Made by a program: the position numbers and the translations under genes. DNA of 64,000 nt, taken from the IMG/VR virus record IMGVR_UViG_3300025389_001063; one strand, written 5' to 3'. Position 1 is the first letter of the stretch, and every line of letters starts with the position of its first letter. Under the pieces are notes generated by a model. The model was given only the letters and a program-made list of their open reading frames with translations. It was not told the DNA's origin and did not search any database. Shown piece by piece: positions 15,183 to 54,400 of the stretch. This stretch comes from a virus (Duplodnaviria > Caudoviricetes).

Positions 15183-16007
15183 ATGGCCAAAGTAAATTAT
15201 TTGAATAATAAAGATTTATTAGAAGAAATACATAAAAGTAAAATATCATATTGCAGTTACATAGATTCTAATTATAGCGATTACGATTTAATACTACCAA
15301 GTTTAGAAAAAATAAACATACGTACAATAGCAGAAGCAAAGAAAAATAAAGCAAAAAAACTAACTTCTAAAGAATTTGAACGAAGAAAATTAGCAGGAGA
15401 TAAAAAGGTAAAACTTAGCGAATGTGAAATAGACTATAGAAAAATAGAAAAGGGAGATATTATATTTCGCATTATGACTTTTGATCATATTCCTTTAGCA
15501 CCTGGTCGTAAAAAGAAAACTAAAACTAGAGCAGATGCACACGAAAAAGTAAATTTCCCTCCATTCCAACACTGGAAATTTGATGATAATGGTGTATTAA
15601 TTTGTGTAGGGAAAAGTCACTGGATTGGTGGTATGGAAAATGGTCACTTCTCCAAAGAACATGGAAAATTCACTAACAAACTAGCAAAAATGTTTATGAA
15701 ATTATGCGAAAGATATGCTACACGTAGTAATGTAAGAGGCTACACATACAACGATGAAATGCGTGGACAAGCAATTTTACAACTAACACAGATAGGACTA
15801 CAATTCGATGAGTCGAAATCAAACAATCCTTTTGCTTATTATACTGCCGCCGTTACTAATAGCTTTGTTCGAGTTATTAATATAGAAAAGAAGAATCAAA
15901 ACATTCGTGATGACATTCTTGAGATGAATAATTTTAATCCTAGTTATACACGACAAAGTAATCACGAATGGAATCAAGCGGTTGAACGGCACAAAAGTAA
16001 AGATTGA
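15183..16007 (+). CDS. gp55: Late transcription sigma factor, T4 gp55-like
   Basis: YLNNKDLL N-terminus and Y.YNDEM...A.LQ...FD..KSNNPFAYYT....NSF.R.I..EKK core; upstream of gp47/46 as in T4-likes. Confidence 0.85.
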   Translation: MAKVNYLNNKDLLEEIHKSKISYCSYIDSNYSDYDLILPSLEKINIRTIAEAKKNKAKKLTSKEFERRKLAGDKKVKLSECEIDYRKIEKGDIIFRIMTFDHIPLAPGRKKKTKTRADAHEKVNFPPFQHWKFDDNGVLICVGKSHWIGGMENGHFSKEHGKFTNKLAKMFMKLCERYATRSNVRGYTYNDEMRGQAILQLTQIGLQFDESKSNNPFAYYTAAVTNSFVRVINIEKKNQNIRDDILEMNNFNPSYTRQSNHEWNQAVERHKSKD

Positions 16008-16058: not shown

Positions 16059-16820
16059 ATGTTTATCTATAAAATTACAGCGGGCGGAAAAGTATATATA
16101 GGGTTTGATACTAAACCTACATATAAGAAATCTAGATGGAAAGATCATTGTCGAGAATCGTTAAAAGATAATCCTAAAAGAAAAATCCATATTATCATGA
16201 AAGAAGTAGGAATTGAAAATTGTCAGTATGAAGTAATTGATGATTCTTTTTCTTCTTTAGGATCATTAGCACTATCTGAAATCGAATACATTGAAAAATA
16301 TAATTCTTTTAAGAATGGTCTTAATTCTAGTCTAGGAGGAGATGGGTTAGGACACACGGGATTTTCAAAACTTACAGAAGATGAAATACAGAAAATTAGA
16401 GAAAAATTAGGTTCTAAATTAAAAGATTATAACACTAATATAAAGTGGGCTAATACTACTAAAGAAGATAGAAAAAAGTTAACAGCACATCTTCATACTC
16501 AAGAGATTTATGAAAAAAGATCTAATACCTTAAAAGAATTTTATAAAGAAAATCCAGAAGAAAAATCTAAAAAAAGTAAAGGTATTACTAATTGGCAAAA
16601 ACATAATCGAGATACTTTACTCAACAACAATAAAAAGAATTCTATAAAAGGAGCAGAAAAAGTTTCTAAAAAAATAAAAGTTGAATTAGAAGATGGTACT
16701 CTGCTATACTATAAAAGTAAAAGTGACTTTCAAAGGCAAACTGGCCAGTGGGCTAATACTATTATTCAAAAAACTAAATTAGGTAATTTTTTTAACGGCT
16801 ACAAAGCATGGGAAATATAA
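16059..16820 (+). CDS. Free-standing GIY-YIG homing endonuclease (Seg-like)
   Basis: FIYKI...KVYIG, RWKDH, E..YIEKYNS..NGLN..LGG motifs; sits between conserved gp55 and gp47. Confidence 0.8.
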   Translation: MFIYKITAGGKVYIGFDTKPTYKKSRWKDHCRESLKDNPKRKIHIIMKEVGIENCQYEVIDDSFSSLGSLALSEIEYIEKYNSFKNGLNSSLGGDGLGHTGFSKLTEDEIQKIREKLGSKLKDYNTNIKWANTTKEDRKKLTAHLHTQEIYEKRSNTLKEFYKENPEEKSKKSKGITNWQKHNRDTLLNNNKKNSIKGAEKVSKKIKVELEDGTLLYYKSKSDFQRQTGQWANTIIQKTKLGNFFNGYKAWEI

Positions 16821-33405: not shown

Positions 33406-33473
33406 ATATTATTACCGAATGGTTTATGGGGAACCCTACCCCGTAGCCCTAGAACGGCAATAAGGAGAAAAAA
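33401..33473 (+). promoter_or_regulatory. Late promoter GATAAATA plus GC-rich structured 5' leader
   Basis: TATGGGG/CCCCGTA hairpin (33425-33445) inside ATTACCG/CGGCAAT; AAGGAG RBS. Confidence 0.55.
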
Positions 33474-33857
33474 ATGGGACGCCCGTTATATGATGACGTA
33501 TTAGGAAATCGTTGTAGAGAATATCCTTCAGGAACAGCAACTGGTCTTAGAGTAACAGCATACATCAATGGTGGATTATATACTGATTGCTTTGTTATGA
33601 ATCAAAAAGGTGCTCGCAAATATAAAGTTTACGAGTATGCAGGAGCACAGACTGCTGTTTGTAAATTAGTAAGTGGAACTCCGGCAAATAATGGTGAGAT
33701 GCAACTCTTTGGTTATTTAGGAAGCAATTCAGGAACAAAAGTTGTTCTTTCTAAATTAGAAAAAAGATTAGCAACAGATTGGAATGGAAACCGTTATACA
33801 TGGTTCCTTGACAATGACTCAACAAACGATTATATTGTTCTAACTCAAGTTAGCTAA
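33474..33857 (+). CDS. Probable virion structural protein
   Basis: Late promoter, strong RBS; QKGARKYKV and RYTW motifs. Confidence 0.55.
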   Translation: MGRPLYDDVLGNRCREYPSGTATGLRVTAYINGGLYTDCFVMNQKGARKYKVYEYAGAQTAVCKLVSGTPANNGEMQLFGYLGSNSGTKVVLSKLEKRLATDWNGNRYTWFLDNDSTNDYIVLTQVS

Positions 33858-36033: not shown

Positions 36034-39000
36034 ATGTCTACACAAGTTGGCCGTATATCGGGTCCGTTGCTCAAATCAAATTTGCTACGTGACGGTGTAG
36101 ATCTAGCATTTGATACTGATTTACTTTTTTTAGATGTTGTTAATAACAGAATAGGTATTAAAAATACTTCTCCTGCTAAAGATTTACACTTAAATGGTTC
36201 TTTTTATAGTACAGGATTAATTATAGACAATTCTATAACTGTTGGTAATCTTATACTTTATGGCAATAATACTATATCAACACTTGTTGGCCCATTATAT
36301 CTATCAGCAGGATCTTTAATTACAACAAGTAATACATTAACTGCTGGGCATATCAGTATTACTACTAATCAAATTCATAATGATACTCCTGGTGAAGATT
36401 TAGAAATTGCTCCAAACGGAACAGGAAAATTATTTCTTCCATCTAATGATTTATATATTTCTGGTAGCCTACATGCTACAGGAGATATAACATTTGATAA
36501 TAATGTAATCTTTGGAGATAATACAAATCAAGACACTATAACTTTTAATGCAGATGTTAATACTCCATTACTTCCAAATGCAACATTAACTTATGATTTA
36601 GGTCAAAATTCTCCAACTTCTTTAAAATGGAAAACAGTATACCTTAACAGTTTAACAAATTATTCTTCATTAACTTCGTCGCAAGACTTAATAGTAAATG
36701 GAACTCATTTTGGAGTAATACAAGGAAAAATTTGGTATGTTGCTACAAATGGCAGTTCTGGAAATGCAGGAAATCATCCTAATTCACCTTTTAACAGTAT
36801 CCAACTAGCATTATCAAATGCATCTTACGGTGATACTGTTTATGTTTATCCAGGAACATACACTGAAACTTTTCCTTTAACAATTCCTTCTGGAGTTACA
36901 ATTAAAGGATCAGATATTAGAACTTGTATATTAGTTCCAAGCTTATTAACTAATAATCAAGATGCATTTTTACTCAATACTGATACGTCAGTTGTGAATA
37001 TTACTATTAGTAATTTTTATTATAATTCTTCTGCTAATACTGGTTATGCTTTTAAATTAGCATCTGGATTTACATTTAATAATAAATCTCCTTATATCTA
37101 CAACGTTTCTGTAATAACAAAAGGATCTATTACAAGTGCTTCAGATCCAAGAGGATTTGATACGGGAGATGCAGGTAAAGCAATTTATTTAGATGGATCA
37201 GTAGCAGATCCTTCGTCAATACAAGCAAGCATTTCTGTAGTTGATAGTACATTTATTACACCAGGTGTTGATTCTGTAACTCTAATTAACGGTGCTACAG
37301 CAGAACTTAAAAATATTTTTACTTATTACGCTAATAGAAGTTATTATGTACCACTAGGCCCTGGAAGAAATAGAACAGTCACTTTAAATACTCCTAATGA
37401 TAGTCGTCTTATAAGCAGTCCTACACAATATCGTATATCAACTGTTGATGGATCAACATCACACGGAAACTATTCTAATACACTCGATGGTGGCAATGCA
37501 TCATCTACTCCAAATTCAACTGTTAACGATAACAGTAGTATAGCAGGATCTTTTCTTTGTACACAGCGTAGTTGGGAACTAAGTGGGTATAAAGTAGGAT
37601 CTATTTTAACAAATTCTACATATTTTGTTCCAGGAACAGTAGTTACTAGTGTTCAAGGACCACAAACATCATATGGTATTTCTTATTATACTGTTTATAT
37701 TAGTAATAATCTAGTAACAGATATTCCATTTGGAACAAGTTTTAATGTAACTGGAAAAATTTATAATACTAATATAAAAAGTTTTAATTCTTCGAGTTGT
37801 TACGGAAACTACAGCGCACATGCAGACGGTTTAGGATCGTTAATAAATCTTAATAATCATATGTTCTATTATGTTGGAAGTAGAAAGAATGATTATAATG
37901 ATGATTCGTTGGTTTCACATACAACTGGTGTTCTTCAAACAAATTCTGGAAAAGTTTTTTATGTAAGTATTAACGAATCTGGTGTTCTTAATATCGGTGA
38001 TAACTTTTATATAGATGCAATTAATAAAACAACAAGTATTAATTGGTCTGTATATAATACAATTAACGAAGTTATAACAATCGATTCTTCAAATATTTCT
38101 AGTATTATTACTAGTACACAAATTACTACAGGAAATATTTTATTAACAGGAAATACTTTAGAATCTATTTCAGGATCTTTAAATTTTTCTGCTAATTCAA
38201 CTCAAACATACTTACAAAGTAATGTTTCTGCTCAAACTAATTTTTATGTTTCTGGAAATCTTAATGCACAAGGTAATGTAGTACTAGGTAGTTTATCAAC
38301 TAACAATATTATTATAAATCCTAAATTAAATCAAGATATAATACCAAAAAATGATAATTTTTATAAGTTAGGTTCTTCTTCCTCAGAATGGTTATCAGTT
38401 TGGGGTAACGATTTTCATTTATCTAGTATTGAAATTTCTGGAAGTACTATATCGACTACTATTACAAATAGTAATTTAAATTTGTTAATAAATGGAGTAG
38501 GTACAGTTTATCTAGGATCATTAAGTTTTGGTACTAGTATAACTTCTACTGATAATATTACTCTTTCAACTGGTGCAAAATCTCTAAAGATTAATAGCAA
38601 TACTGCACTAGTATTACCTAAAAATTCCACTAGTTATATTCCAAATCCAATTACACCAGGCGGAATAATATCTGAATCTGTAACTGTAAATTTAATAATA
38701 CCAAATGATTATAGATTAGCAACACCTTCTTCTTTGAATTATTTTCGAGCTACAAAAATATCATGGGAATCAAGTGGTTTAGGTATAGGATCTCCTCTAA
38801 CTAATCCATCACAATTTGCCTCCGGAACAACTATTACAAATGTTCAAGGTCCTTATAATGATTTTGGATTAGATTATTATATAATCTTTGTCAGTAATAA
38901 TCCTTTGATAGATTTTAATCCAAATGATGTTGTTTCTTCATCAATTTATTTGTTTACAGGAGCAAACTCAACAGCAAGAATTACATTAGGTGGTGTATAT

Positions 39001-39513
39001 TCTTCTGATAGACTTACTTATGTACAACTAGATCCTACAAATCAAAAAATAAACTTTAATAGTAATGGAAATACATTACTTTCGGTAAGTTCGTTAGGAT
39101 TAACTAATGTACCTGCAATACAATTTGGTACTACAACTTTATCTAATAGTTCATTTACTTCTGGAAGTTCTAATATCACATTACAAGCCAACGGAACAGG
39201 ATCAGTAAAATTTAATAGTTCTATTAAAATTAATAATAATGTTATTACTAACCTTACAAATAATCCTCTAGTATGGAATCATACAGGAACTGGATATTTA
39301 AAATTTACCGGGTCATTAGGAATAGTTATACCATCAGGAAATGTTGGAACTAGACAACCTACACCCGAAATAGGTACAACTAGATATAATTCAGACTACG
39401 GATATATGGAAGTTTATAATGGAACAGCATGGGTAGTATCTGCAGGATCGATTGTTACTAGCACATCTGACATTACCAATTTATCCGATATTTGGTCTCT
39501 AATACTAGGTTAA
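36034..39513 (+). CDS. Tail fibre/spike-like protein with pectin-lyase-like beta-helix (DUF1565-like entry)
   Basis: WYVATNG...PFNSIQLAL...GDTVYVYPGTY.E motif; paralog of 39633. Confidence 0.65.
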   Translation: MSTQVGRISGPLLKSNLLRDGVDLAFDTDLLFLDVVNNRIGIKNTSPAKDLHLNGSFYSTGLIIDNSITVGNLILYGNNTISTLVGPLYLSAGSLITTSNTLTAGHISITTNQIHNDTPGEDLEIAPNGTGKLFLPSNDLYISGSLHATGDITFDNNVIFGDNTNQDTITFNADVNTPLLPNATLTYDLGQNSPTSLKWKTVYLNSLTNYSSLTSSQDLIVNGTHFGVIQGKIWYVATNGSSGNAGNHPNSPFNSIQLALSNASYGDTVYVYPGTYTETFPLTIPSGVTIKGSDIRTCILVPSLLTNNQDAFLLNTDTSVVNITISNFYYNSSANTGYAFKLASGFTFNNKSPYIYNVSVITKGSITSASDPRGFDTGDAGKAIYLDGSVADPSSIQASISVVDSTFITPGVDSVTLINGATAELKNIFTYYANRSYYVPLGPGRNRTVTLNTPNDSRLISSPTQYRISTVDGSTSHGNYSNTLDGGNASSTPNSTVNDNSSIAGSFLCTQRSWELSGYKVGSILTNSTYFVPGTVVTSVQGPQTSYGISYYTVYISNNLVTDIPFGTSFNVTGKIYNTNIKSFNSSSCYGNYSAHADGLGSLINLNNHMFYYVGSRKNDYNDDSLVSHTTGVLQTNSGKVFYVSINESGVLNIGDNFYIDAINKTTSINWSVYNTINEVITIDSSNISSIITSTQITTGNILLTGNTLESISGSLNFSANSTQTYLQSNVSAQTNFYVSGNLNAQGNVVLGSLSTNNIIINPKLNQDIIPKNDNFYKLGSSSSEWLSVWGNDFHLSSIEISGSTISTTITNSNLNLLINGVGTVYLGSLSFGTSITSTDNITLSTGAKSLKINSNTALVLPKNSTSYIPNPITPGGIISESVTVNLIIPNDYRLATPSSLNYFRATKISWESSGLGIGSPLTNPSQFASGTTITNVQGPYNDFGLDYYIIFVSNNPLIDFNPNDVVSSSIYLFTGANSTARITLGGVYSSDRLTYVQLDPTNQKINFNSNGNTLLSVSSLGLTNVPAIQFGTTTLSNSSFTSGSSNITLQANGTGSVKFNSSIKINNNVITNLTNNPLVWNHTGTGYLKFTGSLGIVIPSGNVGTRQPTPEIGTTRYNSDYGYMEVYNGTAWVVSAGSIVTSTSDITNLSDIWSLILG

Positions 39514-39524
39514 TTTACCCTCTG

Positions 39525-39632
39525 GATAAATATTATTAACGCCGGACAATACCAACAAAGTCTGGATGTCTAAACTGTGGAAACCCGCAATGTAAGGTGG
39601 TTAGCCGTGAAACTCGGTGGTGAGGAGCGTTG
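39525..39632 (+). ncRNA. Late promoter plus ~95-nt structured 5' leader (candidate cis-regulatory RNA)
   Basis: GATAAATA at 39525-39532; 51% GC over 39541-39630 (counted); four predicted helices; GAGGAG RBS. Confidence 0.5.
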
Positions 39633-42600
39633 ATGACGGTCGTTGGTCGTATCTCAGGCCCGCTCTTAAAAGCAAATCTTCTCCGAGATGGAGTTAATTT
39701 AGCTTTTGAGACTAGCCTTCTTTATTTAGACGTTAATAACCGACGCATTGGTATCAATACCAGTTCACCTACACACGATTTACATGTAAACGGAACATTA
39801 AGAACTACTAACATTGATGGATTAACTTCTCTCACTGTTGGGGCAAATTTTCTTCTAAGCGGAAATACTTTATCAACTAGTGGATCAACACTAACACTAA
39901 GTTCAACATCTGGTGGAGTTATCTATCAAAATAACTTAACAGTAAGTGAAATTAATATTCAATCAAATATTATTTCAACAAATACTACAAATACAGATTT
40001 ACAATTAGTAGCTAACGGAACAGGAAAAATTTCAGTTTATTCTGATATGCTTGTTCAAGGAAATATACATGCTACAGGTAATATTACTGCTGATGGTAAT
40101 ATTATTATTGGTAATCAACCATCAGATATCGTAACTTTTAATGCAGATATTGCTAGTAATATTATTCCTAAGACAACAAACACTTATGATTTAGGATCAA
40201 CATCAAATCGTTGGAATAATCTATGGACTAATACAATTAATGCTAATACCATTAGCACAACTAGTTTAACAATAAACGGTATTAACATTTTACAAGGACA
40301 AGGAAATATTCTCTATGTTGCTACAAATGGTAGTAATTCTAACAACGGTATTTCTCAAAATAGTCCATATGCAACACTACAATATGCTTTATCACAAGCA
40401 ACTTCTGGAACTACAGTTTACATATATCCAGGAACTTATCAAGAAATATTACCTTTATCTATACCTTCTGGAGTTTCTATTAAAGGTATTGAACCAAATA
40501 CTGTTATAATTACTCCGACACCTTCTACAAGCAGTAATGACGTATTCTTAATAGATGGGCAAACAACTGTTGAAGATTTAACAATAAAGAATTTTTATTA
40601 TAATTCCTCTGCAAATACAGGATACGCTTTTAAATTAAAAAATGGATTTAAAGTAACAACAAAATCACCTTATATTAGAAATGTTTTTGTTATTACATCT
40701 GGATCTGTTACAAGCAACTCAGATCCTAAAGGATTTTTAACTGGAGATGCAGGTAAAGGAATATATTTTGATGGATCAGTTGCTGATTCAACTAGCAATT
40801 ATGTTTCTTGCTTAGTAGATAGCACTAATTTTATAACTCCAGGTGTGGATAGTATAACCGCAACAAACGGTGTTCGTTTAGAAATTGTAAATTCAAATAC
40901 ATATTATAGTAATAGAGGAATTTATGCTTATGTTTCCTCATCACAAGGTCGCGCTGGCAATGCATACACAGTTCTTAGAGTTAGTGGTGCAACAGGATCT
41001 TATAGTGTTGGAAGTACTATAAGTTATTATGTAAGTGGATCAGTAGTAGCTACCGGAACTATCTATTCAATAGGAACAGATGGAAAAATATATATTTCTG
41101 GATATTCTCCTGGATTTGTTCAAGCAACAACTGTTAATGGAATTTTACAAACACAAGATATTAGATTTAGTACTGGAGCAACTGCTCAATATATAACTTT
41201 AGCAGATTATAGAAATTTTGGAGCAGAAATTAGAGCAGTAGGTTCTGGAAACTTCTACGGAAATTATGGTGTAGTTGGTAACGGAATTGGTGTTTATATT
41301 GATCTTTTAACACAGAGTGTTTTTTATGTTGGTTCTGGAAATAATGATAGCAATGATCCAACAACAGCAATTCAAGCAAATGAAATTGTAAGTCTTAATA
41401 ATGCTCTTATAGTTTATACTGATACTAATCACAATGGTGATTTTAGAGTAGGTGGTCTTTTTTATGTAAATCAAGAAACTAATGATGTTGCATTTAATAA
41501 TGTTAATCTTAGAGTTAATGGACCATACGGCATAACATTAGTTAATGGATCTAATTCGTCAAGTATTACTCCTTATCAAATTACTACAGGAAATTTAACA
41601 GTAGCAAATAATACAATTAGTAGTACATCAGGTAACATTAATCTTAGTGCAGCTAATAATACTATTAATTTACAAAATGATACTTATGTAACAGGTTCTT
41701 TAACTGTTTCAGGTACTACAAATATAAACGGAAATATAACACTTGGATCATCGTCTTCAAATACAATAAATTTCGTTGGCAGCATAGCAAGTGATCTTAT
41801 TCCTTTAGCAAATAATACTTATAATTTAGGTAATTCTTCATATTCGTGGAGTAATATATACGCTAAAACTGCAAATATATCAAATGTTAATATAACCAAT
41901 AATAATATTCAAACAATTTCTACAGGTTCGAATCTTTATTTGAGTGGAAACGGAACTGGATCTGTTAATATTGGTAGTTTTAGTATAAATCAAAATACTA
42001 TTTCTGTATCTTCTAGCAATGATTTTATCATTACACCTGGTACAGGTAAAATAGTTAATATATCTTCAACAGGATCATTACAATTACCATCTGGAACAAG
42101 TTTACAAAGACCTACTGCTGTAGCAGGGATGATCCGTTACAATACTGATAATCATAATTATGAAGGTTATAATGGTTCTAATTGGATTGTATTAAATGGA
42201 TTATATGATGTCGCTCAGACAACTTATATAACACCAGAATTAACACCTGGAGCAGGTGATCAAACATTCCGTTTTTATATAGGTAATACACAAGTTGCAG
42301 ATTTAAATTCTACAAGATTTAATGTTAATGGAGTTACTGTTGGTAATACATACATCAGTAACAACGTTATAGGAACTACATCAAATACAGATTTAACTAT
42401 TAATTCATCATCTGGAAATATTAATATAGAATATTTTCGAATAAATGGTAGTTCAATTACTAATACTGTTTCCAATAGTATTACAACTATTTCACAAAGC
42501 GGAACAGGATATTTTAAAATAAGTGGTACTGGTGGTTTTGTTATACCTTCTGGAAACAGTCTAGGAAGACCTTCAGTACCAGAAATAGGTTTTTCCAGAT

Positions 42601-42731
42601 ATAATACAGACGATGGTCGTATTGAAGTATGGAACGGAGCATCATGGGTTTCGGCAGGTGGATCATCTATCGGTGTTTCCTATAACGATGCCCAGCAAAT
42701 TGCAGTACAGATAGCGTTAATGTTAGGATAA
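39633..42731 (+). CDS. Tail fibre/spike-like beta-helix protein, paralog of 36034
   Basis: VGRISGPLLKANLLRDG N-terminus; LYVATNG..PYATLQYAL..GTTVYIYPGTY.E; ATG 39633 fits RBS spacing better than TTG 39630. Confidence 0.65.
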   Translation: MTVVGRISGPLLKANLLRDGVNLAFETSLLYLDVNNRRIGINTSSPTHDLHVNGTLRTTNIDGLTSLTVGANFLLSGNTLSTSGSTLTLSSTSGGVIYQNNLTVSEINIQSNIISTNTTNTDLQLVANGTGKISVYSDMLVQGNIHATGNITADGNIIIGNQPSDIVTFNADIASNIIPKTTNTYDLGSTSNRWNNLWTNTINANTISTTSLTINGINILQGQGNILYVATNGSNSNNGISQNSPYATLQYALSQATSGTTVYIYPGTYQEILPLSIPSGVSIKGIEPNTVIITPTPSTSSNDVFLIDGQTTVEDLTIKNFYYNSSANTGYAFKLKNGFKVTTKSPYIRNVFVITSGSVTSNSDPKGFLTGDAGKGIYFDGSVADSTSNYVSCLVDSTNFITPGVDSITATNGVRLEIVNSNTYYSNRGIYAYVSSSQGRAGNAYTVLRVSGATGSYSVGSTISYYVSGSVVATGTIYSIGTDGKIYISGYSPGFVQATTVNGILQTQDIRFSTGATAQYITLADYRNFGAEIRAVGSGNFYGNYGVVGNGIGVYIDLLTQSVFYVGSGNNDSNDPTTAIQANEIVSLNNALIVYTDTNHNGDFRVGGLFYVNQETNDVAFNNVNLRVNGPYGITLVNGSNSSSITPYQITTGNLTVANNTISSTSGNINLSAANNTINLQNDTYVTGSLTVSGTTNINGNITLGSSSSNTINFVGSIASDLIPLANNTYNLGNSSYSWSNIYAKTANISNVNITNNNIQTISTGSNLYLSGNGTGSVNIGSFSINQNTISVSSSNDFIITPGTGKIVNISSTGSLQLPSGTSLQRPTAVAGMIRYNTDNHNYEGYNGSNWIVLNGLYDVAQTTYITPELTPGAGDQTFRFYIGNTQVADLNSTRFNVNGVTVGNTYISNNVIGTTSNTDLTINSSSGNINIEYFRINGSSITNTVSNSITTISQSGTGYFKISGTGGFVIPSGNSLGRPSVPEIGFSRYNTDDGRIEVWNGASWVSAGGSSIGVSYNDAQQIAVQIALMLG

Positions 42732-42735
42732 AAAT

Positions 42736-43065
42736 ATGGCAACAACATTTTTAACTTCAGTAGTACCAAATATCGGAACAAGCTCAACAACATTAGTGTC
42801 AGCAGCATCAAACGTTTCGATTACTATTATTGGTTTAAGTTTAGCTAACACTACAGAAAGTTTAGTTAAAGTAAGTGTTACTCTTACAGATGCTTCTAGT
42901 CACACAGGATACTATATAAAAAATGTAATGGTACCTCCAAGAACCAGTATGAAAATTGTAAATGGCGGTGAAAAATTAATTTTAGGAGCATCAAATGTAT
43001 TGTCGGCAATAGCAGATAGTCCGACATCTATAGATGCTATTGTTTCTTATGTGCAGATAGTATAA
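42736..43065 (+). CDS. Small beta-rich virion protein
   Basis: IGLSLAN...YYIKNVMVPP...GGEKLIL motif; related to 35179. Confidence 0.55.
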   Translation: MATTFLTSVVPNIGTSSTTLVSAASNVSITIIGLSLANTTESLVKVSVTLTDASSHTGYYIKNVMVPPRTSMKIVNGGEKLILGASNVLSAIADSPTSIDAIVSYVQIV

Positions 43066-43076
43066 GGATATAGAAC

Positions 43077-43448
43077 ATGACTGATTATTTTCTTGGTGGT
43101 AATGCAATAACTCAAAATGATTTATTAGGTGGACAACCTAGATATTTCTACGGGTTAAGAAGAACAGATCAAGGTGATCTTTATTTTGTTAGAATTGATC
43201 AGTTAGAACAATCTGATACAATTACAATTAATAATCCTGGACCTACTTCGGGAAATTATGATCAATTTGAGTTTGGTACAGACTTCTTTGAGGGTAGAGA
43301 TGTAAATCATAATCTAGTTTATTCTAATTTAACTTATGAACAATATCGTTGGGATAATAGAAGTATGTATTATTACATTGACTCAAATGGTGAATTAACA
43401 GCAGTAATAGGACAGGTACATACATATCCTTCAGCAGGAAACGTATAA
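43077..43448 (+). CDS. Hypothetical virion protein
   Basis: RYFYGLRRT..G.L, YEQYRWD...YYID..GEL; lies in the structural cluster. Confidence 0.55.
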   Translation: MTDYFLGGNAITQNDLLGGQPRYFYGLRRTDQGDLYFVRIDQLEQSDTITINNPGPTSGNYDQFEFGTDFFEGRDVNHNLVYSNLTYEQYRWDNRSMYYYIDSNGELTAVIGQVHTYPSAGNV

Positions 43449-43523: not shown

Positions 43524-46500
43524 ATGGCTGAGTTTAAAATAGGAAGATTGAGATTTGTATGGCAGGGAACATGGACTACTAGTACTAGCTATGTTAAAGA
43601 CGATGTTGTTCGATTCGGTGGTAAAACATATGTATGTTTGGTAGGAAATACTTCCGGCACTTTCTATACAGATCTTGCTAGTGGTTATTGGTCATTAATG
43701 GCTGATGGATTTTCTTATCAAGGAACATGGACAACAGCAACTTCATACAAAATAGGTGACGTTGTTAGAAATGGTGGTCAATCTTATATTTGTGTTACAG
43801 GAAATACTTCCGGCGCAACTTTTGCAGGTGACTCGGCTTATTGGAATTTATTAGCAGGTGGTATTTCTTGGAGAGGTACTTGGACACCGGCAACACTTTA
43901 TAATGTTAATGATATTATTATATTTGGTGCTATTACATTTATTTGTACAACTGCAAATACTAGTTCTTCAAATTTTGCTACAGATCAATCTTCGTATTGG
44001 ACAATTTTTGCACAAGGAACTCAATTTGTTAATACATGGAACAATTCTACTCAATACTCAGCAGATAGTATTGTAACTTATGGTGGTTATACTTACGTTT
44101 CATTGCAGACTAATACAGGACAAGTTCCGCCGTCTAGCCCTAGTTATTGGTCAGTTTACACAACTGGTTATAGTAATCAAGGTACATTTAGTTACGGAAC
44201 AACATACAAAGTAGGTAGTGTTGTTCAATACGGTGGTAATACATATGTTGCTATTCTTGATAATACTAATCAGTATCCAACTAATGTTACATATTGGTCA
44301 ATAGTAGCATATGGTCTAAATGTTAGAGGAACATTTAGTTACGGAACACAATACAATCCAAACGATATTGTTGTTTATGGTGGTACAACTTACTATGCAT
44401 TACAAGCAAATATCAATGTTTATCCTTCTGCATTAGGATCAAACTGGAAGGTATTATCGTCAGGTCTTTCTAATAGAGGAACATGGTCAAATTCAACAAA
44501 TTATTTTGTTAATGATTTAGCTTCTTATGGTGCAAACATTTATATTGCTACACAAGATAATACAGGTCAAACACCAAGCACTTCAGCTTCATATTGGTCA
44601 GTATTTAATTATGGATATAACTATGCAGGAACATGGACTTCATCAACTGCATATAAATTAGGTCAGGTTATTACATTTGGTGGTTCTCTATATCAAGCAC
44701 TATCAGACAATACTAATCAAACACCGGGTAATGTAACAATAACTGTTACTGCTACAACTACTGGTACAAACTTAATTACAGCAAGTAGCACAACAGGTTT
44801 AGCAGCTAATCAGCCAATAGTATTTGCTTCTAGTGTTGGAAATCTTGTAGCAGGTACAACTTATTATATTTTATCAGGTTTCTCAGGAACACAATTTCAA
44901 GTAAGTTCTACAATAGGCGGTACAGCATTTAGTTTATCAACAGCAGGACCTGTCTCAATTAGTGCTACACAATATGGAACTACATATTGGTCAAAATTAT
45001 CTTTTGGTATTAAGAACAGAGGTACTTGGGTAACTTCAACATCATATAACGTTGACGAAATTGTAATACATGGTGCAAATGTATACATTTCATTAATAGC
45101 ACATACATCAGGTACTTTTTCATCAGATTTAAGCGCAAGCAAATGGCAAATACTTGCTAGTGGCTTAGCATGGAGAAATACTTGGGCTTCTTCTACTGTT
45201 TATTATGTAAACGACTTAGTTGTTGGTCCATCAGGATCTGTTTATATTGCACTACAAGATAATACTTCTAGCGGTACTTTTAGTACTGATTTAGGTGCGG
45301 GTTATTGGCAGATATTTGTACAATATAATTCATTCTCTCCTCCATCATACTCAACTCCAGGAACAGCATTAACAGTTGCATCGGGAGGTGCATCTCTTAG
45401 TTGGTTGAACCCAACTGGTTCTACTAATGTTCTTTATGTTGGTCCAGGTGGTGTTGATAGTGTTTCAGGTGGTTATGGTACAAGTTTAGCATTACCTTTT
45501 GCAAGTATTAGATATGCTTGTACTCAAGCAAGTTCAGGATACACAATTTTTGTCAAATCAGGAACATATAATGAATTTCTTCCAATTACTGTTCCAGCAG
45601 GTGTTGCAGTTATTGGTGATAACGTTAGAACAACATTTGTTAATCCAGTTAGCGGAACTAGCGTAACAACTACAGTTACTCAAGTTTCATCAACTGGTAA
45701 CTTAATTACAGCAAGTAGTACAGCAAGTTTCATAGCAAATGCACCAATAACATTTAGTGCTAATCTAGGTAATCTTGTTGCAGGTACTGTTTATTATATT
45801 GTAAGTGGTTTTGGTGCAACTACTTTCCAAGTAAGTTTAACATCAGGTGGTTCAGTTTTTAATCCAGGAACTGCTACAGGATCAATCAGTGCTACACAAT
45901 ACGGTGACTTAACTGGTTTAATTCCAAACAATCAATCAACAATGTTTAAACTAAGTGATAATACTTCTCTTCGTGAAATGACATTCCAGAATATGACTGG
46001 TTGGGTTCCAGGTGGAACAGCAAACGACATTACAACATCAACTCCTAAAGGTATCTATATTGGATTTAATTCAGGAGCAATTACTAGACCACCGAGTGTT
46101 TCAAATTGTACAACAAGTACGGCTTCAGGAGCAATCGGTGCTTATCTAGATGGTTCAGTAGTTACTGGATTAAAAACAGCAAGTTTCCGTTATTTTAACG
46201 TTCAAAGTGATACAGGTGTTGGTATTTGGGCTACAAATAATGCAAGACCTGAAGTAATTACAAGCGCAACATCATATTGCTATTTCAGTTATGCTGCTAC
46301 AAATGGTGGTTTTATAAGACTTAACAATTGTAAAACAAACTGGGGTACTTATGGTTTAACTTCTAGAGGTTATCTATCTTCAGAAACTGCAATTACTGGT
46401 AATGTTGTTGGACAACAATTAAACTTTACATATAACACAGGTAATATTAACGTAGGTGATACTGTTACTTCAGTAACTAGTGGTGGTACTGCTACAGTTA

Positions 46501-48401
46501 TCGGTGTCCAACTAACACAAAATAAAGTATTTGTTACTAGTGCTACAGGAACATTTAATGTTAATGACTTGCTAACATTTACTAGTGGTGGTACAGGTAC
46601 AGTAACTACAGGTGCATTAAGTAATCAAACAGGTAACTCATTTACATTGAATACTTTAACTGCACAACCTGTTGCTGGTAGTGTTATTACATTAAACGGT
46701 ACAGATTCTTATGTTGTTCAAGCAGTTAACGGAACTTGGGTTAACTCGTCAACAGTAATAACAATTCTTTTAGCATCCACTACTGTTACAACATATGCAA
46801 ATAGTACATCAGCATCTTTCCGTTCTCAAACATCAGTTGTTAAAGCAGAAGCACATGAGTTCTTCTATGTTGGTACAGGTGGTGTAACAAATACAAACTA
46901 TCCAGGAACTCCGTTATCAGGTCCAACTCCAGCAAACGAAATTGTTCAAGGATTACCTGGTAGAGTATACTACGAATCAATCAACGAATACGGAAACGTT
47001 AAAATTGGTAGTTATTTTAACGTTAATCAGCAAACAGGTGTTGCTACACTTAATCCAGCAGCATTTGCTATAACTGGTGCATCATCCTTACAACTAGGTG
47101 CAATTGGTACATTAACTGGAGCAACTATCACTAAGTTCTCTACAGATGGAACTTTAGTTAATAATAGTAGCCTTAGTGTTCCTACTGAATCTGCTGTTAA
47201 GACGTATGTTGATAATGGTCGTACAACAACACTTTTACCAAATGGTTTCAATCTCAGCAGTCTTACTAGCATTGGTATAGTTGAAATTTCAAATGACGGT
47301 GTTAACATTGTTAAGATAGATCAAAACTTAACTGCAACTACAAGAGCAGACTCAACATTTGGTACTGGTACATCATATGCAAGAGCTGCAAGTGCTAGAA
47401 CTATTGTAATATATCCAGTTAGCGGACAGACTTCATTTACAGTATGGGTAAGTGGTATTCAATACACTTATACATCAATGATAACTGGAACATACGCAAG
47501 TCTAAACAATCTTAATTACTTCTTCTTTGGACCAAGTGGTATAGTATCTTATACATCTGGAACTATTCAAGACTCATATTATGAAAGTTTAGCACTATTT
47601 GCAGTTGCAACAGGTACAGATAGCACTAACACATTTGCTGTATTTTCGAGAAAAACACTCGGAATTAATATGCCAGGTACAGTTCACCGTTATTTGATTA
47701 ACTCTACTGGTGCTGTATATAAGACTGGTTTAGGTGTTGTTGGTGCAACATCAGGTGCTACCACATATACTAATACAGTAGCAGGTTCTACCGCAGTACA
47801 AGAATTAACACATACTTTTGCATCACTATCAACTAACTATTGGTTGTATAATATTGCTGGAGTATGGACTGTAGGTACTGCTGATAATAACTTTGGTTAT
47901 TTAACAGGTGGTACTGCACAATATAACGGTTCGGGTGCATTAACAACACTCACAACAGGTCAGTACACAGTTACATATTTTATTGCTACAAGTGATAAAA
48001 TACGTGGTGGTGTTATGAAACTTGTAGGACAAAAAGTATTCACATCACTTGCCGCTGCAAGACAGTCGGCATCAACTGAACCAAGAGACACAAGTCTTGT
48101 TGGTTTACCTAACATGGATTTTGTTTGGATTGGAGCTGTAGTTATTAACTCAACGGGTGCTGTTCAGACATTAGATAACGGAACAACATATATTGATCTT
48201 CGTTATCAAATCATAAACGGCGGTGTTAATAGTTTAGGTTATCATCTGGTCAATGCAGCAGCATCAGACATTTACTATAATAATGCAACATCCGGTTTAG
48301 CAGCAACAAACGTTCAAACAGCAATTGATGCTGCTTCTTCAAGTTTGACTAGAGCTAGAAGTACATTATCACTAAATACATTATGGACAAATGCCTGGTA
48401 A
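43524..48401 (+). CDS. Large fibre protein: ten CBM5/12-like repeats plus beta-helix domain
   Basis: Ten GTW...T.Y...D.V..GG..Y......W repeats, then LYVG..G.D...PFASI.YA...IFVKSGTYNE..PI.VP. Confidence 0.7.
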   Translation: MAEFKIGRLRFVWQGTWTTSTSYVKDDVVRFGGKTYVCLVGNTSGTFYTDLASGYWSLMADGFSYQGTWTTATSYKIGDVVRNGGQSYICVTGNTSGATFAGDSAYWNLLAGGISWRGTWTPATLYNVNDIIIFGAITFICTTANTSSSNFATDQSSYWTIFAQGTQFVNTWNNSTQYSADSIVTYGGYTYVSLQTNTGQVPPSSPSYWSVYTTGYSNQGTFSYGTTYKVGSVVQYGGNTYVAILDNTNQYPTNVTYWSIVAYGLNVRGTFSYGTQYNPNDIVVYGGTTYYALQANINVYPSALGSNWKVLSSGLSNRGTWSNSTNYFVNDLASYGANIYIATQDNTGQTPSTSASYWSVFNYGYNYAGTWTSSTAYKLGQVITFGGSLYQALSDNTNQTPGNVTITVTATTTGTNLITASSTTGLAANQPIVFASSVGNLVAGTTYYILSGFSGTQFQVSSTIGGTAFSLSTAGPVSISATQYGTTYWSKLSFGIKNRGTWVTSTSYNVDEIVIHGANVYISLIAHTSGTFSSDLSASKWQILASGLAWRNTWASSTVYYVNDLVVGPSGSVYIALQDNTSSGTFSTDLGAGYWQIFVQYNSFSPPSYSTPGTALTVASGGASLSWLNPTGSTNVLYVGPGGVDSVSGGYGTSLALPFASIRYACTQASSGYTIFVKSGTYNEFLPITVPAGVAVIGDNVRTTFVNPVSGTSVTTTVTQVSSTGNLITASSTASFIANAPITFSANLGNLVAGTVYYIVSGFGATTFQVSLTSGGSVFNPGTATGSISATQYGDLTGLIPNNQSTMFKLSDNTSLREMTFQNMTGWVPGGTANDITTSTPKGIYIGFNSGAITRPPSVSNCTTSTASGAIGAYLDGSVVTGLKTASFRYFNVQSDTGVGIWATNNARPEVITSATSYCYFSYAATNGGFIRLNNCKTNWGTYGLTSRGYLSSETAITGNVVGQQLNFTYNTGNINVGDTVTSVTSGGTATVIGVQLTQNKVFVTSATGTFNVNDLLTFTSGGTGTVTTGALSNQTGNSFTLNTLTAQPVAGSVITLNGTDSYVVQAVNGTWVNSSTVITILLASTTVTTYANSTSASFRSQTSVVKAEAHEFFYVGTGGVTNTNYPGTPLSGPTPANEIVQGLPGRVYYESINEYGNVKIGSYFNVNQQTGVATLNPAAFAITGASSLQLGAIGTLTGATITKFSTDGTLVNNSSLSVPTESAVKTYVDNGRTTTLLPNGFNLSSLTSIGIVEISNDGVNIVKIDQNLTATTRADSTFGTGTSYARAASARTIVIYPVSGQTSFTVWVSGIQYTYTSMITGTYASLNNLNYFFFGPSGIVSYTSGTIQDSYYESLALFAVATGTDSTNTFAVFSRKTLGINMPGTVHRYLINSTGAVYKTGLGVVGATSGATTYTNTVAGSTAVQELTHTFASLSTNYWLYNIAGVWTVGTADNNFGYLTGGTAQYNGSGALTTLTTGQYTVTYFIATSDKIRGGVMKLVGQKVFTSLAAARQSASTEPRDTSLVGLPNMDFVWIGAVVINSTGAVQTLDNGTTYIDLRYQIINGGVNSLGYHLVNAAASDIYYNNATSGLAATNVQTAIDAASSSLTRARSTLSLNTLWTNAW

Positions 48402-48434
48402 ATAAGGCGCAAGGATATATTAGGAGTATAATAA

Positions 48435-51400
48435 ATGACAACAGCGGCAAAATATGGCGCACAAGACTTAAACGGTAATCCATTCAATTACCAACAGTTA
48501 GTTCCACTACCAAGTACAAACCCAAGTACTACAAATACCGTAGTTAATACCAACATCACTAACAGAGCAGCATATGATGCCAGAGTTAGAGTTGCTTTAA
48601 CTAATACCCCAATTGGATCACAAGTTGTTTCAAACGTTCATGGATCGCAGTCATTTGTTGCACAACAGAGTGCAGCATCAACACTTGTTGAAACACAACA
48701 AGTTTTAACAATTGATACTGCATCAGCAATTACTAATGCATTTTCAACAGCATCATATGTTGTTACAGCAACTACTGAAAATACAAACGTTATTACAGTA
48801 TCAAGTACTGCAACATTTACAGTTGGTCAACCAGTTGTATTCAGTGCTTCGGTTGGTAACTTAACAGCAGGTACAGTTTATTATATCCTAACTATTCCTA
48901 GTTCAACAACATTTACTGTTTCTCCAATTTGGAACGGACCAGTTCAAATGTTAACTACTAGTACATTTCCTATGATTGTCCAACAAACTGTAACTAACCT
49001 GTCAGTTGGTATGCCAATTAACTTCCACGGTACTACATTTGGTTATGCTTTTTATAACATGAACTATTATGTTGCAAGTTTACCAGGTGGTTCAAATGGT
49101 ACAACATTTACTATTTCATTATTCCCAGGTGGTCCAACATTACCTTTAATTTCTGCAATTGGTACAATGTCCTGCGTTCCAGTAGTTACTCCAGTTGCTA
49201 ACCCACAAACCGCTCAGTATCCAACTGCAATGACTTCAGCAATTGCACTTAATACAACTGCTCAGTCAGGCTACTATAATACTTTACAAGGTATTACTGT
49301 AATAGCATCAACAGCATCAACTAACGTATTAACTACAGCATCATTTTCGATTACTGCATCAACTGCTGCTTCAGGTACATTAGGTTTTGGTTATTTAACA
49401 ACTAGTGGTAACGCATACCTCTTAACAGCAGGACAACCAATTGTATTCAACGCAACAGTTACTGGTTCTGCTCTTTATGCTAACATTACATATTATGTTC
49501 ACTCAGTATTAAGTTCTACAACATTTACTGTTAGTACTTCTTATAACGGTAATCCATTCTCAATAGCAACTAATGCTAGTATCAGTGGTGTTACAATGTA
49601 TCTAAGTACAAACTACCTTCAGACTAACCAGCAGATAATTTTCACTGGTACTTCTTTTGGTAATATTACTCCAAATACTCCATACTATATTTCAACAGTT
49701 CCAAGTAATAACACATTTACTGTTTCAACTTGGCCAGGTGGACCAGTATTTCCTTTAACAACTACCACAGGTACAATGGTTGCATCGGCGTTTGTTCCTC
49801 CAACAGTTCCACAACTTGTTTTTGGTAGTTCTCAAGCAGGTGTAACTCTAAACATTAGTGCTACAACTACTGGTACAAACTTAATTACTGCTACTAGTAT
49901 AACTGGTTTAGTAGCAAACCAACCAATCGTATTCAGTGCTAGTATTGGTGGTCTTATTGCTAATACAACTTACTATGTTGTAAGTGGTTTTGGTGGAACT
50001 ACATTCCAGGTAAGTGCAACACAAGGTGGTACTGCATTAAGTTTAACATCTGGTACAGGTACATTAACTGCCCAAGCATTACCATATTTTAACACTTTTT
50101 CAACAACTGTTACAGCAACTACAGCAAGTACAAACTTAATTACTGTAACAAATACATCAAACTTTGTTCCAGGACAACCAGTTGTATTTGCTTCTGCTGT
50201 TGGTGGACTTAGTGCTAATACTGTTTACTATGTATTAAACGTTTACAGTTTAACACAATTGGTTGTTTCAACAACACAAGGCGGTGTAGCATTCCCTCTA
50301 ATCACTACTACAGGTCAGTCTGTAGCAATGTCTCAAGCAACTACTGGTTTAGCAACAAACCAACCGTTGCAGTTTGCTACCGTAACAATTTCAGTTACAG
50401 CAACATCGTCAACTGGTAATTTAATTACTTGTAATAATACTGTAAATCTTGTAGCAAACCAGCCAATAGTATTCAGTGGAACAATTGGTACTATTACAGG
50501 TGGTACAGTTTACTATGTGTCAGCAGTTACAGGTGGTAGTACTACTACATTTACTATCAGCCAAACATCGGGTGGTGCTGTATACGGCATGTCCAATGCT
50601 TCAGGTTCCGTAACGGCTCAACAAGGTACATTCTCTGGATTAGTTCCAGGACAGGTATACTATGTATACAGTGTTCCTTCACTAACACAAGTTGTAGTTT
50701 CAAGCATCCATGGTGCGCCAACTCCTCTTACATTAACTACTGTAGCAGCAGGTTCTATGCTTGCTACATTCCAGTCAGTTATTCCTACAATTACACTAGG
50801 AACATCAACTGCAACTGGTACAGTTTATCCTTTAAACAACACTTATACAACTTCAACATATTCAATAAGCAGCACTACTACAACTAACGTTGTTATTGGT
50901 TCTGCAGTTCCACTTATGACAGGTCAGCCAGTTACATTCTTTATCGGTGGTTCACTTGCTAATTCGAACGGTATTGTTGCATTTGTATCAGTTACAGCAA
51001 CTACATCAGGAACTAACGTAATTACATTAGCAAGTGCTACTGGTCTTTATGTTGGTCAAGCAATTGTGTTTGGTGCTAGTGGTGGTGGTATTATTACAGG
51101 TACAGTTTATTATATTACATCGATTTCAGGTGCAAATATTACTGTATCAACAACACCATATGGTACAAACCTTACACTAACAACTGCTACAGTATCATTT
51201 ACTGGTGTTCCAACTTATTACATCACATATTATGATAACCCAACTAACTCTATACAGATATCTGCAACATACGGTGGTCCAATTGTTCCATTAACAGCAG
51301 GTATTCCAGGTAGTAGTACAGTACAACATGCAACTACTAACCTTCTTGCTGGGCAACCAATATATGTAACAGGTACAGCATTCGGTGGTACTACTACTAA

Positions 51401-54400
51401 TACTACTTACTATGTAAGAACTATTCCATCTGCAACACAGTTTACAATTTCAACTTCACCATTTGGACAGATCTCTACATTAACAGCAACAACTGGTACA
51501 ATGCCAACATTAATTGGTCCAAGACCAGTAATAACAATTCAGTCAAGTGTTTCATCAAACCAGTTAGCAACACAGACTTATGCAGTTACAGCAACTACAG
51601 CTACAACTAACTTAATTACTGTATCAAATACATTTGCTTTAACAGTAGGTATGCCAGTTGTATTCAGTGGTGCTTTAGGTAACTTAGTCAGTGGTATGAT
51701 TTACTATGTTGCAAGTATTCCAACAGCAACAGCATTTTCAGTTTCACCAACACTAGGTGGAAATACATTTGCTCTTGCTACAGCAACAGGTTCTGTAAAC
51801 GTACAACAGGCTACATCACTATTGTACATTAACCAAGAAATACAGTTCCAAGGATTTACTTATCCACTTAGTACAGCAACATCAACTGGTATTACATTTG
51901 GTACTACATATTTTATTAACAGTATTGTGTCTACTACAACCTTTACAATTTCAACAGCACAAAACGTTGCCGGTACATCTGCAACTACTGCTACTGTAAC
52001 AGGTGGTAACATAATTCTTGCTAACCCAATTGTTAATAACATTGTTGACGTATTTGCTTACACAACAAATCCTGTTACTGTAACAGCTACATCAAGTACA
52101 AGTCCAACATATTATCTAACTTGTGCTAATACAGTTAACTTAGCAGTTGGACAACCAATTATATTCACAGGTACTACATTATTAGGCGGTGTATCTGCAA
52201 ATACAGTTTACTATGTAAACTCAATTGCAAGTACTACACAGTTTAATATTTCATCTACATATGGTGGTCCAGTTGTAGCATTAACAACAGGTAGTGGTAC
52301 GATGTCAGTTCAACAAGCAACATCTGGTTACTCCGCTAACCAAACTGTTATATTGAACTCACCAACTGTAACTATTACTGGTACAAGTTCATCAGGTAAC
52401 TTATTAACTTGTAATACTACAAACAACTTAATAATTGGTCAGCCAATTGTATTCGGTAATATGGCACAAGGTACTGCTAGTATTGGTGGTGTTGTTGCTG
52501 GTACAACTTACTATGTATTAAGTACACCAAGTACAACAACATTTACAGTATCAGCTACTCCAAGTGGATCTGCACTTACTTTAACTACTACTTCAACACA
52601 GTTTGCAGGACAGCAAGGTATATTCGGTCAGCAATATAATACTAATGGTCAGAACTGGGTAGTTCAAAGTACACCAAGTTTAACATCACTTATACTTTCA
52701 AGAGTAGGTTCAAGTGTTACACAGTCTGGTTTAGGACTATTTCCACTACCAGCAGTTGCACCACTTGTAGTAACTGCTACATCAGGATCTAGTCCATATT
52801 ATATTACAATATCAAGTACTGCATCACTTACAGTTGGACAACCTGTAATATTTGTTGGTACAACATTTGGTGGTTTAACTGCTTCAGTTAACAGTCTTAT
52901 TAACCCAACTGTTTACTATGTAAATGCAATTGCAAGTTCTACTACATTTAACGTTTACACTACAACTCCAGGTACTCCAGTTGTATTAACAGGTGCTAGT
53001 GGTAACTGTATTCTTGTTCCGTTAAGTGCAACAGGTATTGCTACTGCTTATTCATACAACGTAACACCAACTCTTGCTATTGGTGCTACAACAACAAGTA
53101 CTAACATTTTAACTACACAGGCTTACAGCGTTTCACTAGGTGCATCAGGTACAAACTTGATATCAATATCAACATCAGGTGGTACAACAGCATTTGTACT
53201 TGGACAACCAATTACATTTGCTGCAAATACTGGTAGTATTACAGGTGGTATTACTTACTATATCTCTTCGATACAGTCAACTACCACATTTAGTATTTCA
53301 CAGTTCTTTGGCGGACCAGACTTGATTATTACAGGTTCCGGTAGTACTACAATGAACCAAATAACATCATTCTTACAGATTAATCAACCAGTAACATTTA
53401 CTGGTACATTATTAGGTGGTTTGACTGCTGCTTCTAACTATGCTGTAACATACTATGTAACTAACGTAGTAAGTAGTACAACATTTGTTGTCAGTACTCA
53501 GTCAGGTGGTGTAGGCACACAGTTATCACTCACAACAACAACTGCTACAGCACCAAGCTTTATGATGGCACAAGTTGGTTCTTATAGATCTCTTAGTTTT
53601 AACTCAACTAACAACGGTACTTCAGTACTGCAAACTGAAAGTTTTTCTGTAACTGCTACTGCCGCAATTAACGGTGGTCAGATGCTTGTTACAGCAAGTA
53701 ACACATTTGCAATGTATCCAGGTATGGCTCTATCGTTTACAGGTACATCGATCGGATTTTTATCAAATAACGTTCTTTACTATGTAGTATCTGTATATGA
53801 CGAAAAAAGATTTATTATTTCTACTGCACCAGTTGGGTCAATTGGTATTGCAACAAACGGTACAACTGTTCTACAGACAGCAAACGGTGTTGCACTAACA
53901 CAACAGACTACAACAGGTACTATGTCAGCTGTACAAAGTTTAGCAAGATTACAACAGAACCAAGCAGTTGTATTTTATCCAACTATTGGTGGTGTAATGA
54001 TTGCAGGCTTAACACAGGGTACAATTTACTATGTTAACCCTACATTTACTAATCCAATGAGTGGCACATTGTCAGTATCAACTACACCTGGCGGTTCGGC
54101 ATTTACATTCTCAGCAGTTAACAATACTGGTACTACGGCGGCTATGATAATGGTTCCACTATCAACATGGACTGTTGCGTCAAACGTAATGATCACACAG
54201 CCAATGCCAATTTATAGTGGTACAACATCATCAAACGTGTTCACTACTGGTAACTTAACTATTGTTACAAATACATCATACGGTACAAACTATATCACTT
54301 GCTATAGTACATCTGCACTAGCAGTTGGTATGCCAGTTGTATTTGGTTCGGCTATTGGTTCACTAGCATCTGCTACAACATACTATGTTGTTCAAATTAT

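Follow-up and report, generated by a model that had tools for sequence, protein, structure and literature searches.

What does a long, GC-rich 5′ leader do in front of a single virion gene of a T4-like phage? The leader in question (39538-39632) occupies 95 nt of a 64,000-nt stretch of viral DNA, the whole of which was analyzed and is hereafter called the window. The original prediction, made from the letters alone, described it as 51% GC and read it as a riboswitch-like switch; its measured GC content is 50.5%, versus 33.5% for the window. Here, we argue that, by comparison with its homologs, the leader is a real, uncatalogued pseudoknotted RNA that falls in no described family. Its pairing pattern makes it very probable that the leader is a cis-acting RNA functioning at translation initiation. 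Its base changes, together with its likeness to a bacterial operator, suggest a translational operator gated by a protein, a reading to which we assign a probability of about one half.

A Late Gene of a T4-Like Phage

By its gene content, the window comes from a T4-like phage. Specifically, PHROG families match its major head, portal, head protease, late sigma factor, and baseplate hub proteins, with the gp55-like late sigma factor at 15183-16007. Homing-endonuclease-like ORFs (16059-16820, 20056-20469, and 20439-21116, plus strand) lie around an SbcD-like gene and its neighbor, and a 137-aa ORF among them has a top PHROG hit labeled NAD synthetase. The relatives of this phage are uncultured viral contigs, the largest of 357 kb. 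A DNA search of cultured phages returned no match of note.

The promoter, the parts of the leader, the paralogs, the small genes, and the second leader described below are all on the plus strand. A T4-like late promoter box, GATAAATA, stands at 39525-39532, just ahead of the leader as originally noted, and TAAATA precedes the leader in homologs as well. Transcription would begin a few nucleotides 3′ of this box. The gene that follows the leader (39633-42731; ATG at 39633; 1032 aa) encodes a fiber-like or baseplate-associated virion protein. Protein matches of its product in cultured phages span residues 128–198 only, and its N-terminal domain is present in none of these phages. The label “fiber” is based on weak fiber-like hits and on the domain content of homologs, in which PF13385 and other domains are found, rather than on a relative of solved structure. 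Next, after gaps of 4 and 11 nt, comes a pair of conserved genes for small proteins (109 and 123 aa; 42736-43448), and the next TAAATA is at 43446. These small genes are present in more than 200 loci and are probably co-transcribed with the fiber-like gene. Beyond this operon, the region 43524-55934 (plus strand) encodes a pair of very long repeat proteins rich in Thr and Ser (1625 and 2499 aa), the first of which matches tail-fiber PHROGs.

Immediately upstream of the leader lies a paralog (36034-39513; 1159 aa) that provides a negative control. The two paralogs have an N-terminal GRISG domain in common, both match baseplate-wedge and virion structural protein families in PHROG, and each has its own late promoter. 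That they are alternative fibers whose ratio is set by the leader, as originally proposed, is a conjecture, nothing in these features pointing to competition between the two. The upstream paralog was said to have no such leader, and this is borne out: it has only 43 nt of upstream sequence, and a covariance model finds a single leader copy in the window, as it does in each of five large phage records. The leader had further been called the only long GC-rich leader in the fiber cluster; it does not stand alone as a structured late leader in this neighborhood. Another lies at 33408-33476, before a 127-aa gene at 33474, and matches Rfam freshwater-2 (RF02980; cis-regulatory, function unknown) at 47.4 bits (gathering score 49.9; E 2e-6).

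One Leader, One Gene Family

Homologs were collected by protein-anchored and pattern scans. A 23-base piece of the leader is exactly conserved in 15 viral stretches. Among 356 distinct starts of the gene family, 252 carry the leader; the 104 that do not are nearly all the upstream paralog. Each complete motif match with a readable downstream gene stands before the same fiber-like gene family, the remainder being one contig that ended too soon and pattern hits lacking the 3′ half. The leader is, in short, strictly linked in cis to one gene in T4-type phage. The motif and its gene also occur together in four metagenome-assembled genomes (L333, L334, L335, and L337), whose bacterial groups are unrelated. 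These matches are probably mis-binned phage contigs, and therefore no host is deduced from them.

Some orthologs do without the leader. In three cases (L057:5006, L456:3001, and L461:3001), the promoter lies directly 5′ of the start. The flanking small genes are kept in these three lineages wherever this could be checked; thus, the idea that leader loss is tied to loss of a neighboring small gene was abandoned, no coincidence having been found. In seven further homologs (L247, L335, L326, L319, L331, L356, and L361), the 5′ hairpin P1, described below, is absent and the core starts a few bases after TAAATA. With P1 gone from seven homologs and the entire leader from three lineages, the core is the minimal unit, and some phages can dispense with the element.

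A Fold Recovered by Comparison

Folded alone, the window's leader is no more stable than its shuffles (z −0.96), and thus the evidence for structure is comparative. In an independent MAFFT alignment of 43 sequences, the proposed structure pairs in 85% of cells, compared with 24–49% for slid controls, and 12 of its 20 pairs show two-sided change. An absence of covariation had been named in advance among the grounds for rejecting the original prediction; covariation is found, so that ground falls away. Base changes back four elements: P1, a pseudoknot core, the hairpin P4, and a long-range helix between the P1 loop and early codons.

P1 (39542-39565) consists of the originally proposed CCGGAC/GTCTGG stem (39542-47/39560-65) and a 12-nt loop. 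Its sequence is variable and its shape is conserved: a hairpin of at least 6 bp occurs here in 244 of the 245 homologs that have the segment, with a median z of −2.6 versus mononucleotide shuffles. In 196 of 202 homologs, the loop motif is left unpaired.

The pseudoknot core (39575-39604) is formed by S1 (39576-78/39587-89) and S2 (39582-85/39599-602), with an extra pair, C39586-G39597, and a GNRA loop (39592-95) closed by U39591-G39596. The counts that follow overstate the invariance of the core because part of the sample was gathered with core patterns, and protein-anchored loci supply most of the rare compensatory variants. Within S1, the first pair is U-A in 243 homologs, C-G in 7, and A-U in 2; the second is G-C in 252; and the third is U-G in 241, U-A in 5, and C-G in 4. 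S2 has four pairs in the window. Across homologs, the first is C-G (244) or U-A (3), the second C-G (247), the third A-U (162), G-C (48), or U-G (9), with 25 A-C mismatches, and the fourth A-U (239) or C-G (5). The pair that closes the core's inner loop is C-G in 122 homologs, A-U in 79, G-U in 19, and G-C in 5. The GNRA segment of this inner loop is either a tetraloop (short form, as in the window) or follows an inserted hairpin (long form). Without tertiary contacts, the nested part of the window's core is unstable, at +2.4 kcal/mol, which fits conditional folding.

P4 (39605-39617) is the CCG/CGG hairpin of the original prediction. In the window it is of type A, with 3 bp and a 7-nt loop that, we presume, resembles a T-loop. 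Type B P4 instead has a GGG/CCC stem and an AC..GAU loop. Across homologs, the three-pair stem shows full G-C/C-G exchange. A fifth S2 pair is U-A or C-G in type B leaders; the corresponding bases are A-A in type A. Long and short cores combine with type A and type B hairpins in all four ways. On the protein tree, type A/B switches about 10 times and long/short about 29 times.

Not every helix first drawn persists. The proposed CTAA/TTAG helix is paired in 64% of cells, one of its columns fails in 26 of 43 sequences, and AACC is the better partner for its 3′ strand. The alternative pairing of CTC with the GAG of the ribosome-binding site, the switch first proposed, is found in 50% of cells, and CTC occurs in just 16 of 252 homologs. 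Both pairings were rejected. The TGTGG/CCGCA helix is retained in part: three of its pairs hold in every sequence, the fourth breaks in 25 of 43 sequences, and the fifth is invariant, its C being needed by the better-supported AACC/GGUU helix. The broader claim, that a conserved, cis-acting, structured leader precedes the second of two paralogous fiber-like genes, is strongly supported.

A Helix between the P1 Loop and Early Codons

The P1 loop has a partner in the coding region. Its segment ACCAAC (39551-39556; GACC-type in homologs) faces the Val-Gly-Arg codons at 39642-39648. The window's loop has drifted, yet six Watson-Crick pairs remain (39551-56 with 39642-47). Among homologs, the Gly-Arg codons are complementary to the P1 loop, and the first base of these codons is at +10 in 217 genes and at +13 in 25. 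The two sides covary: GACC accompanies GGUC in 188 cases, GUCC accompanies GGAC in 14, and crossed cases number 0. The protein tree shows six changes per side and five independent lineage pairs, all concordant; a sign test on these five yields p 0.0625, the floor for five pairs, so that 0.05 is unreachable. The prediction of compensatory loops was fixed first, followed by a targeted scan for genes with non-GGU glycine codons. The GUCC loop is present in 14 of the 16 leader-bearing GGA-CGN genes, four of the 14 having already been seen before the scan.

The helix is not universal, because P1 (seven homologs) or its loop motif (43 more) is missing in 50 leaders. GGUC is lost in 9 of these 50, as it is in the leaderless L057 and L461, and it is kept in only 18 of the 104 leaderless starts, nearly all of them the upstream paralog. 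In 81 of 88 loci, the P1 loop finds a better partner in its own gene than in the paralog (medians −9.0 versus −3.6 kcal/mol). An alternative partner for the loop, the GGU inside the core, was dropped on inspection: variants break that pairing, whereas the coding-sequence partner covaries.

Because the P1 loop pairs with codons ~3–5, the core, the Shine-Dalgarno sequence, and the start codon all lie inside a long loop. Pairing of the leader with early coding sequence also makes control of translation likely. The geometry is regular: 16–18 nt separate the end of P4 from the AUG in 222 of 243 homologs, and 6–7 nt separate it from the Shine-Dalgarno sequence (GAGGAG, 39622-39627, in the window) in 200 homologs. 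No U-run that would indicate a terminator follows P4 in the 252 homologs, and no conserved anti-Shine-Dalgarno element is present, such tetramers occurring in only 16 of 252. Neither stop-codon readthrough nor bypass from the upstream paralog is likely, because a promoter and a Shine-Dalgarno sequence intervene, the spacing varies, and the upstream gene differs in L007.

How the Leader Could Control Initiation

The notion is that the element, as the 5′ leader of a late mRNA, would work as a translational operator. Comparison shows that it folds into P1, the compact pseudoknot core, and P4, with the P1 loop held on codons ~3–5. The 30S subunit could still dock on the Shine-Dalgarno sequence, with a constant spacing to P4 and the core on its 5′ side. 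For the start codon to be accommodated, the helix at +8 to +15 would first have to melt, as happens in the rpsO operator of E. coli. More tentatively, the near-invariant core may be a binding site whose occupancy stabilizes or releases the looped state. The likeliest binder would be a protein, whether the gene's own product before assembly, some other late protein of the phage, or a protein of the ribosome. If so, gating by protein would match fiber output, and perhaps that of the two small genes, to virion assembly.

Candidates for such a protein were sought. No RNA-binding fold emerged in the product's N-terminus or in the 123-aa neighbor; Pfam, PDB, and fold searches gave no sign of RNA binding by the product, and atlas searches led to unnamed viral clusters. 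An AlphaFold monomer model of product residues 1–230 (pLDDT 75, pTM 0.48) has no PDB match at E 0.001. The fiber-like product is acidic overall; its first 40 residues are basic and conserved, but they are common to the leaderless paralog. The five large records contain no match to CsrA and, in a search that had no working positive control, none to RegA.

Of the other explanations, the one that fares best invokes a constitutive element with no separate regulator: the core would bind host 30S or S1, as a standby site or enhancer, or would protect the 5′ end, and the P1-codon helix would dampen initiation to a fixed level. PMC6690012 describes standby-site action for structured 5′ elements. The fixed geometry to the Shine-Dalgarno sequence agrees with this explanation, as do the persistence of the core in P1-less leaders, where it begins a few bases after the promoter, and the outcome of the RegA/CsrA and fold searches, which yielded no candidate phage regulator. 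However, a Shine-Dalgarno sequence alone could set a fixed level, as with the paralog, and constitutive action leaves unexplained why one gene has so elaborate a fold and two interchangeable types of P4. We regard it as possible but unlikely.

Alternatively, the core might represent a new class of molecule, either an aptamer specific to phages or a self-cleaving ribozyme, with the pairing of the P1 loop to the coding region as its output. If so, a ligand or a self-cut would free the start region, timing the fiber protein late in infection. We find this pair of ideas, taken together, doubtful, and the two can be considered in turn.

As a small-molecule riboswitch, the leader would use the core as aptamer and the P1-codon helix, shifted by ligand binding, as its expression platform, which would be an unusual one. 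H-type pseudoknot riboswitches (SAM-II/V, preQ1, and guanidine-III) likewise present a small pseudoknot with invariant loop bases near the ribosome-binding site. The leader is a compact, conserved 5′ UTR fold with covariation, and its pseudoknot has many invariant bases, some of them unpaired, and two sites of tolerated variation. The leader differs from the H-type riboswitches in having no Rfam match, even at E up to 10, in placing the Shine-Dalgarno sequence outside the pseudoknot, and in having no metabolic gene context. Riboswitches are reported from T4-like phages (PMC9004378). Here, however, the single downstream family encodes a virion protein with no metabolite link, the four real matches among prokaryote genome assemblies also precede that same phage gene, and both a terminator and a conserved anti-Shine-Dalgarno element are absent. 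Taken singly, a riboswitch therefore seems improbable.

Self-cleavage is less plausible still. The core would cut near its 5′ edge, either removing an inhibitory P1 and so switching translation on with a delay, or leaving a nuclease-resistant 5′-OH end. The sharp, invariant 5′ boundary of the core and its ability to stand without P1 fit such a cut, and the order of pseudoknot, A-rich linker, hairpin, and GU seems to us loosely reminiscent of the pistol ribozyme. Nevertheless, no Rfam ribozyme (pistol, HDV-like, twister-sister, or hatchet) is hit at E up to 10, the pistol P2 helix and GCG are not seen and the helix order is not HDV-like, and the strict linkage to a single gene also counts against it.

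Finally, a host CsrA/RsmA operator, in which the GGA of the type B P4 loop would act beside the GGA of the Shine-Dalgarno sequence, is scarcely credible: 136 type B loops have the sequence ACAGGAU atop a stem, near the ANGGAX hairpin consensus (PMC4005645), but the window and 107 other homologs carry the type A loop, which has no GGA, and several type B loops without GGA still keep AC..GAU. Indeed, in type B hairpins (e.g., L019:4918-4984), the loop is CsrA/RsmA-like, but what is conserved appears to be AC..GAU around a variable insert.

Relation to Known Systems

Rfam 15 assigns the leader nothing at gathering score, nor at E up to 10 in the window, and gives chance hits only, outside the leader, in six homolog loci. 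The same search detected freshwater-2 at 33408, which served as its positive control. A literature search with motif strings over searchable paper text found nothing. Fremin et al. (2023) mined candidate phage RNAs from IMG/VR, some of them upstream of GP20 and GP32 genes, and no tail or baseplate leader is named in its main text (PMC10690425). The motif may be present, unnamed, among the 8,495 IMG/VR candidates of that study.

Freshwater-2 resembles the leader in being a late leader of the same phages associated with a single gene. It differs in sequence and fold, and neither model matches the other's leader. All 77 distinct homologs of the freshwater-2 leader precede ATG-GG starts and have a CC or CCC loop, a potential pairing partner for the run of Gs at the start codon. 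Because these bases are invariant, no covariation is available for that pairing.

To our knowledge, a helix joining a leader to coding sequence is otherwise known from bacterial ribosomal-protein operators. In E. coli rpsO, a pseudoknot of the leader and early coding region leaves the Shine-Dalgarno sequence in a loop; the 30S subunit docks, after which S1 opens the fold, a step that S15 prevents (PMC3985624, PMC3858243). The phage leader similarly forms a helix with the first codons, with the Shine-Dalgarno sequence and AUG looped out, and we propose for it the same docking followed by unfolding. In contrast to rpsO, to which it has no sequence or Rfam similarity, its loop holds a second pseudoknot and a hairpin, and its gene encodes a phage virion protein with no ribosomal-protein gene downstream. 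Within T4 itself, gene 32 relies on a 5′ pseudoknot for autogenous repression (PMC3014915). There, too, the 5′ leader of a single T4-type phage gene contains a pseudoknot, which lies 5′ of the initiation region. The leader described here differs from that of gene 32 in having a GC hairpin 6–7 nt 5′ of the Shine-Dalgarno sequence, in pairing into coding sequence, and in preceding a gene whose product has no recognized RNA-binding domain.

Outlook

The leader represents a widespread, uncatalogued candidate operator on a late virion gene. Being ~110 nt in length and offering natural compensatory, P1-less, and leaderless variants, it lends itself directly to reporter assays and probing. The covariation described above shows that RNA-level selection acts on synonymous codons early in a phage structural gene. 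The presence of the freshwater-2 leader a few genes upstream in the same phages hints at a wider RNA control of virion assembly.
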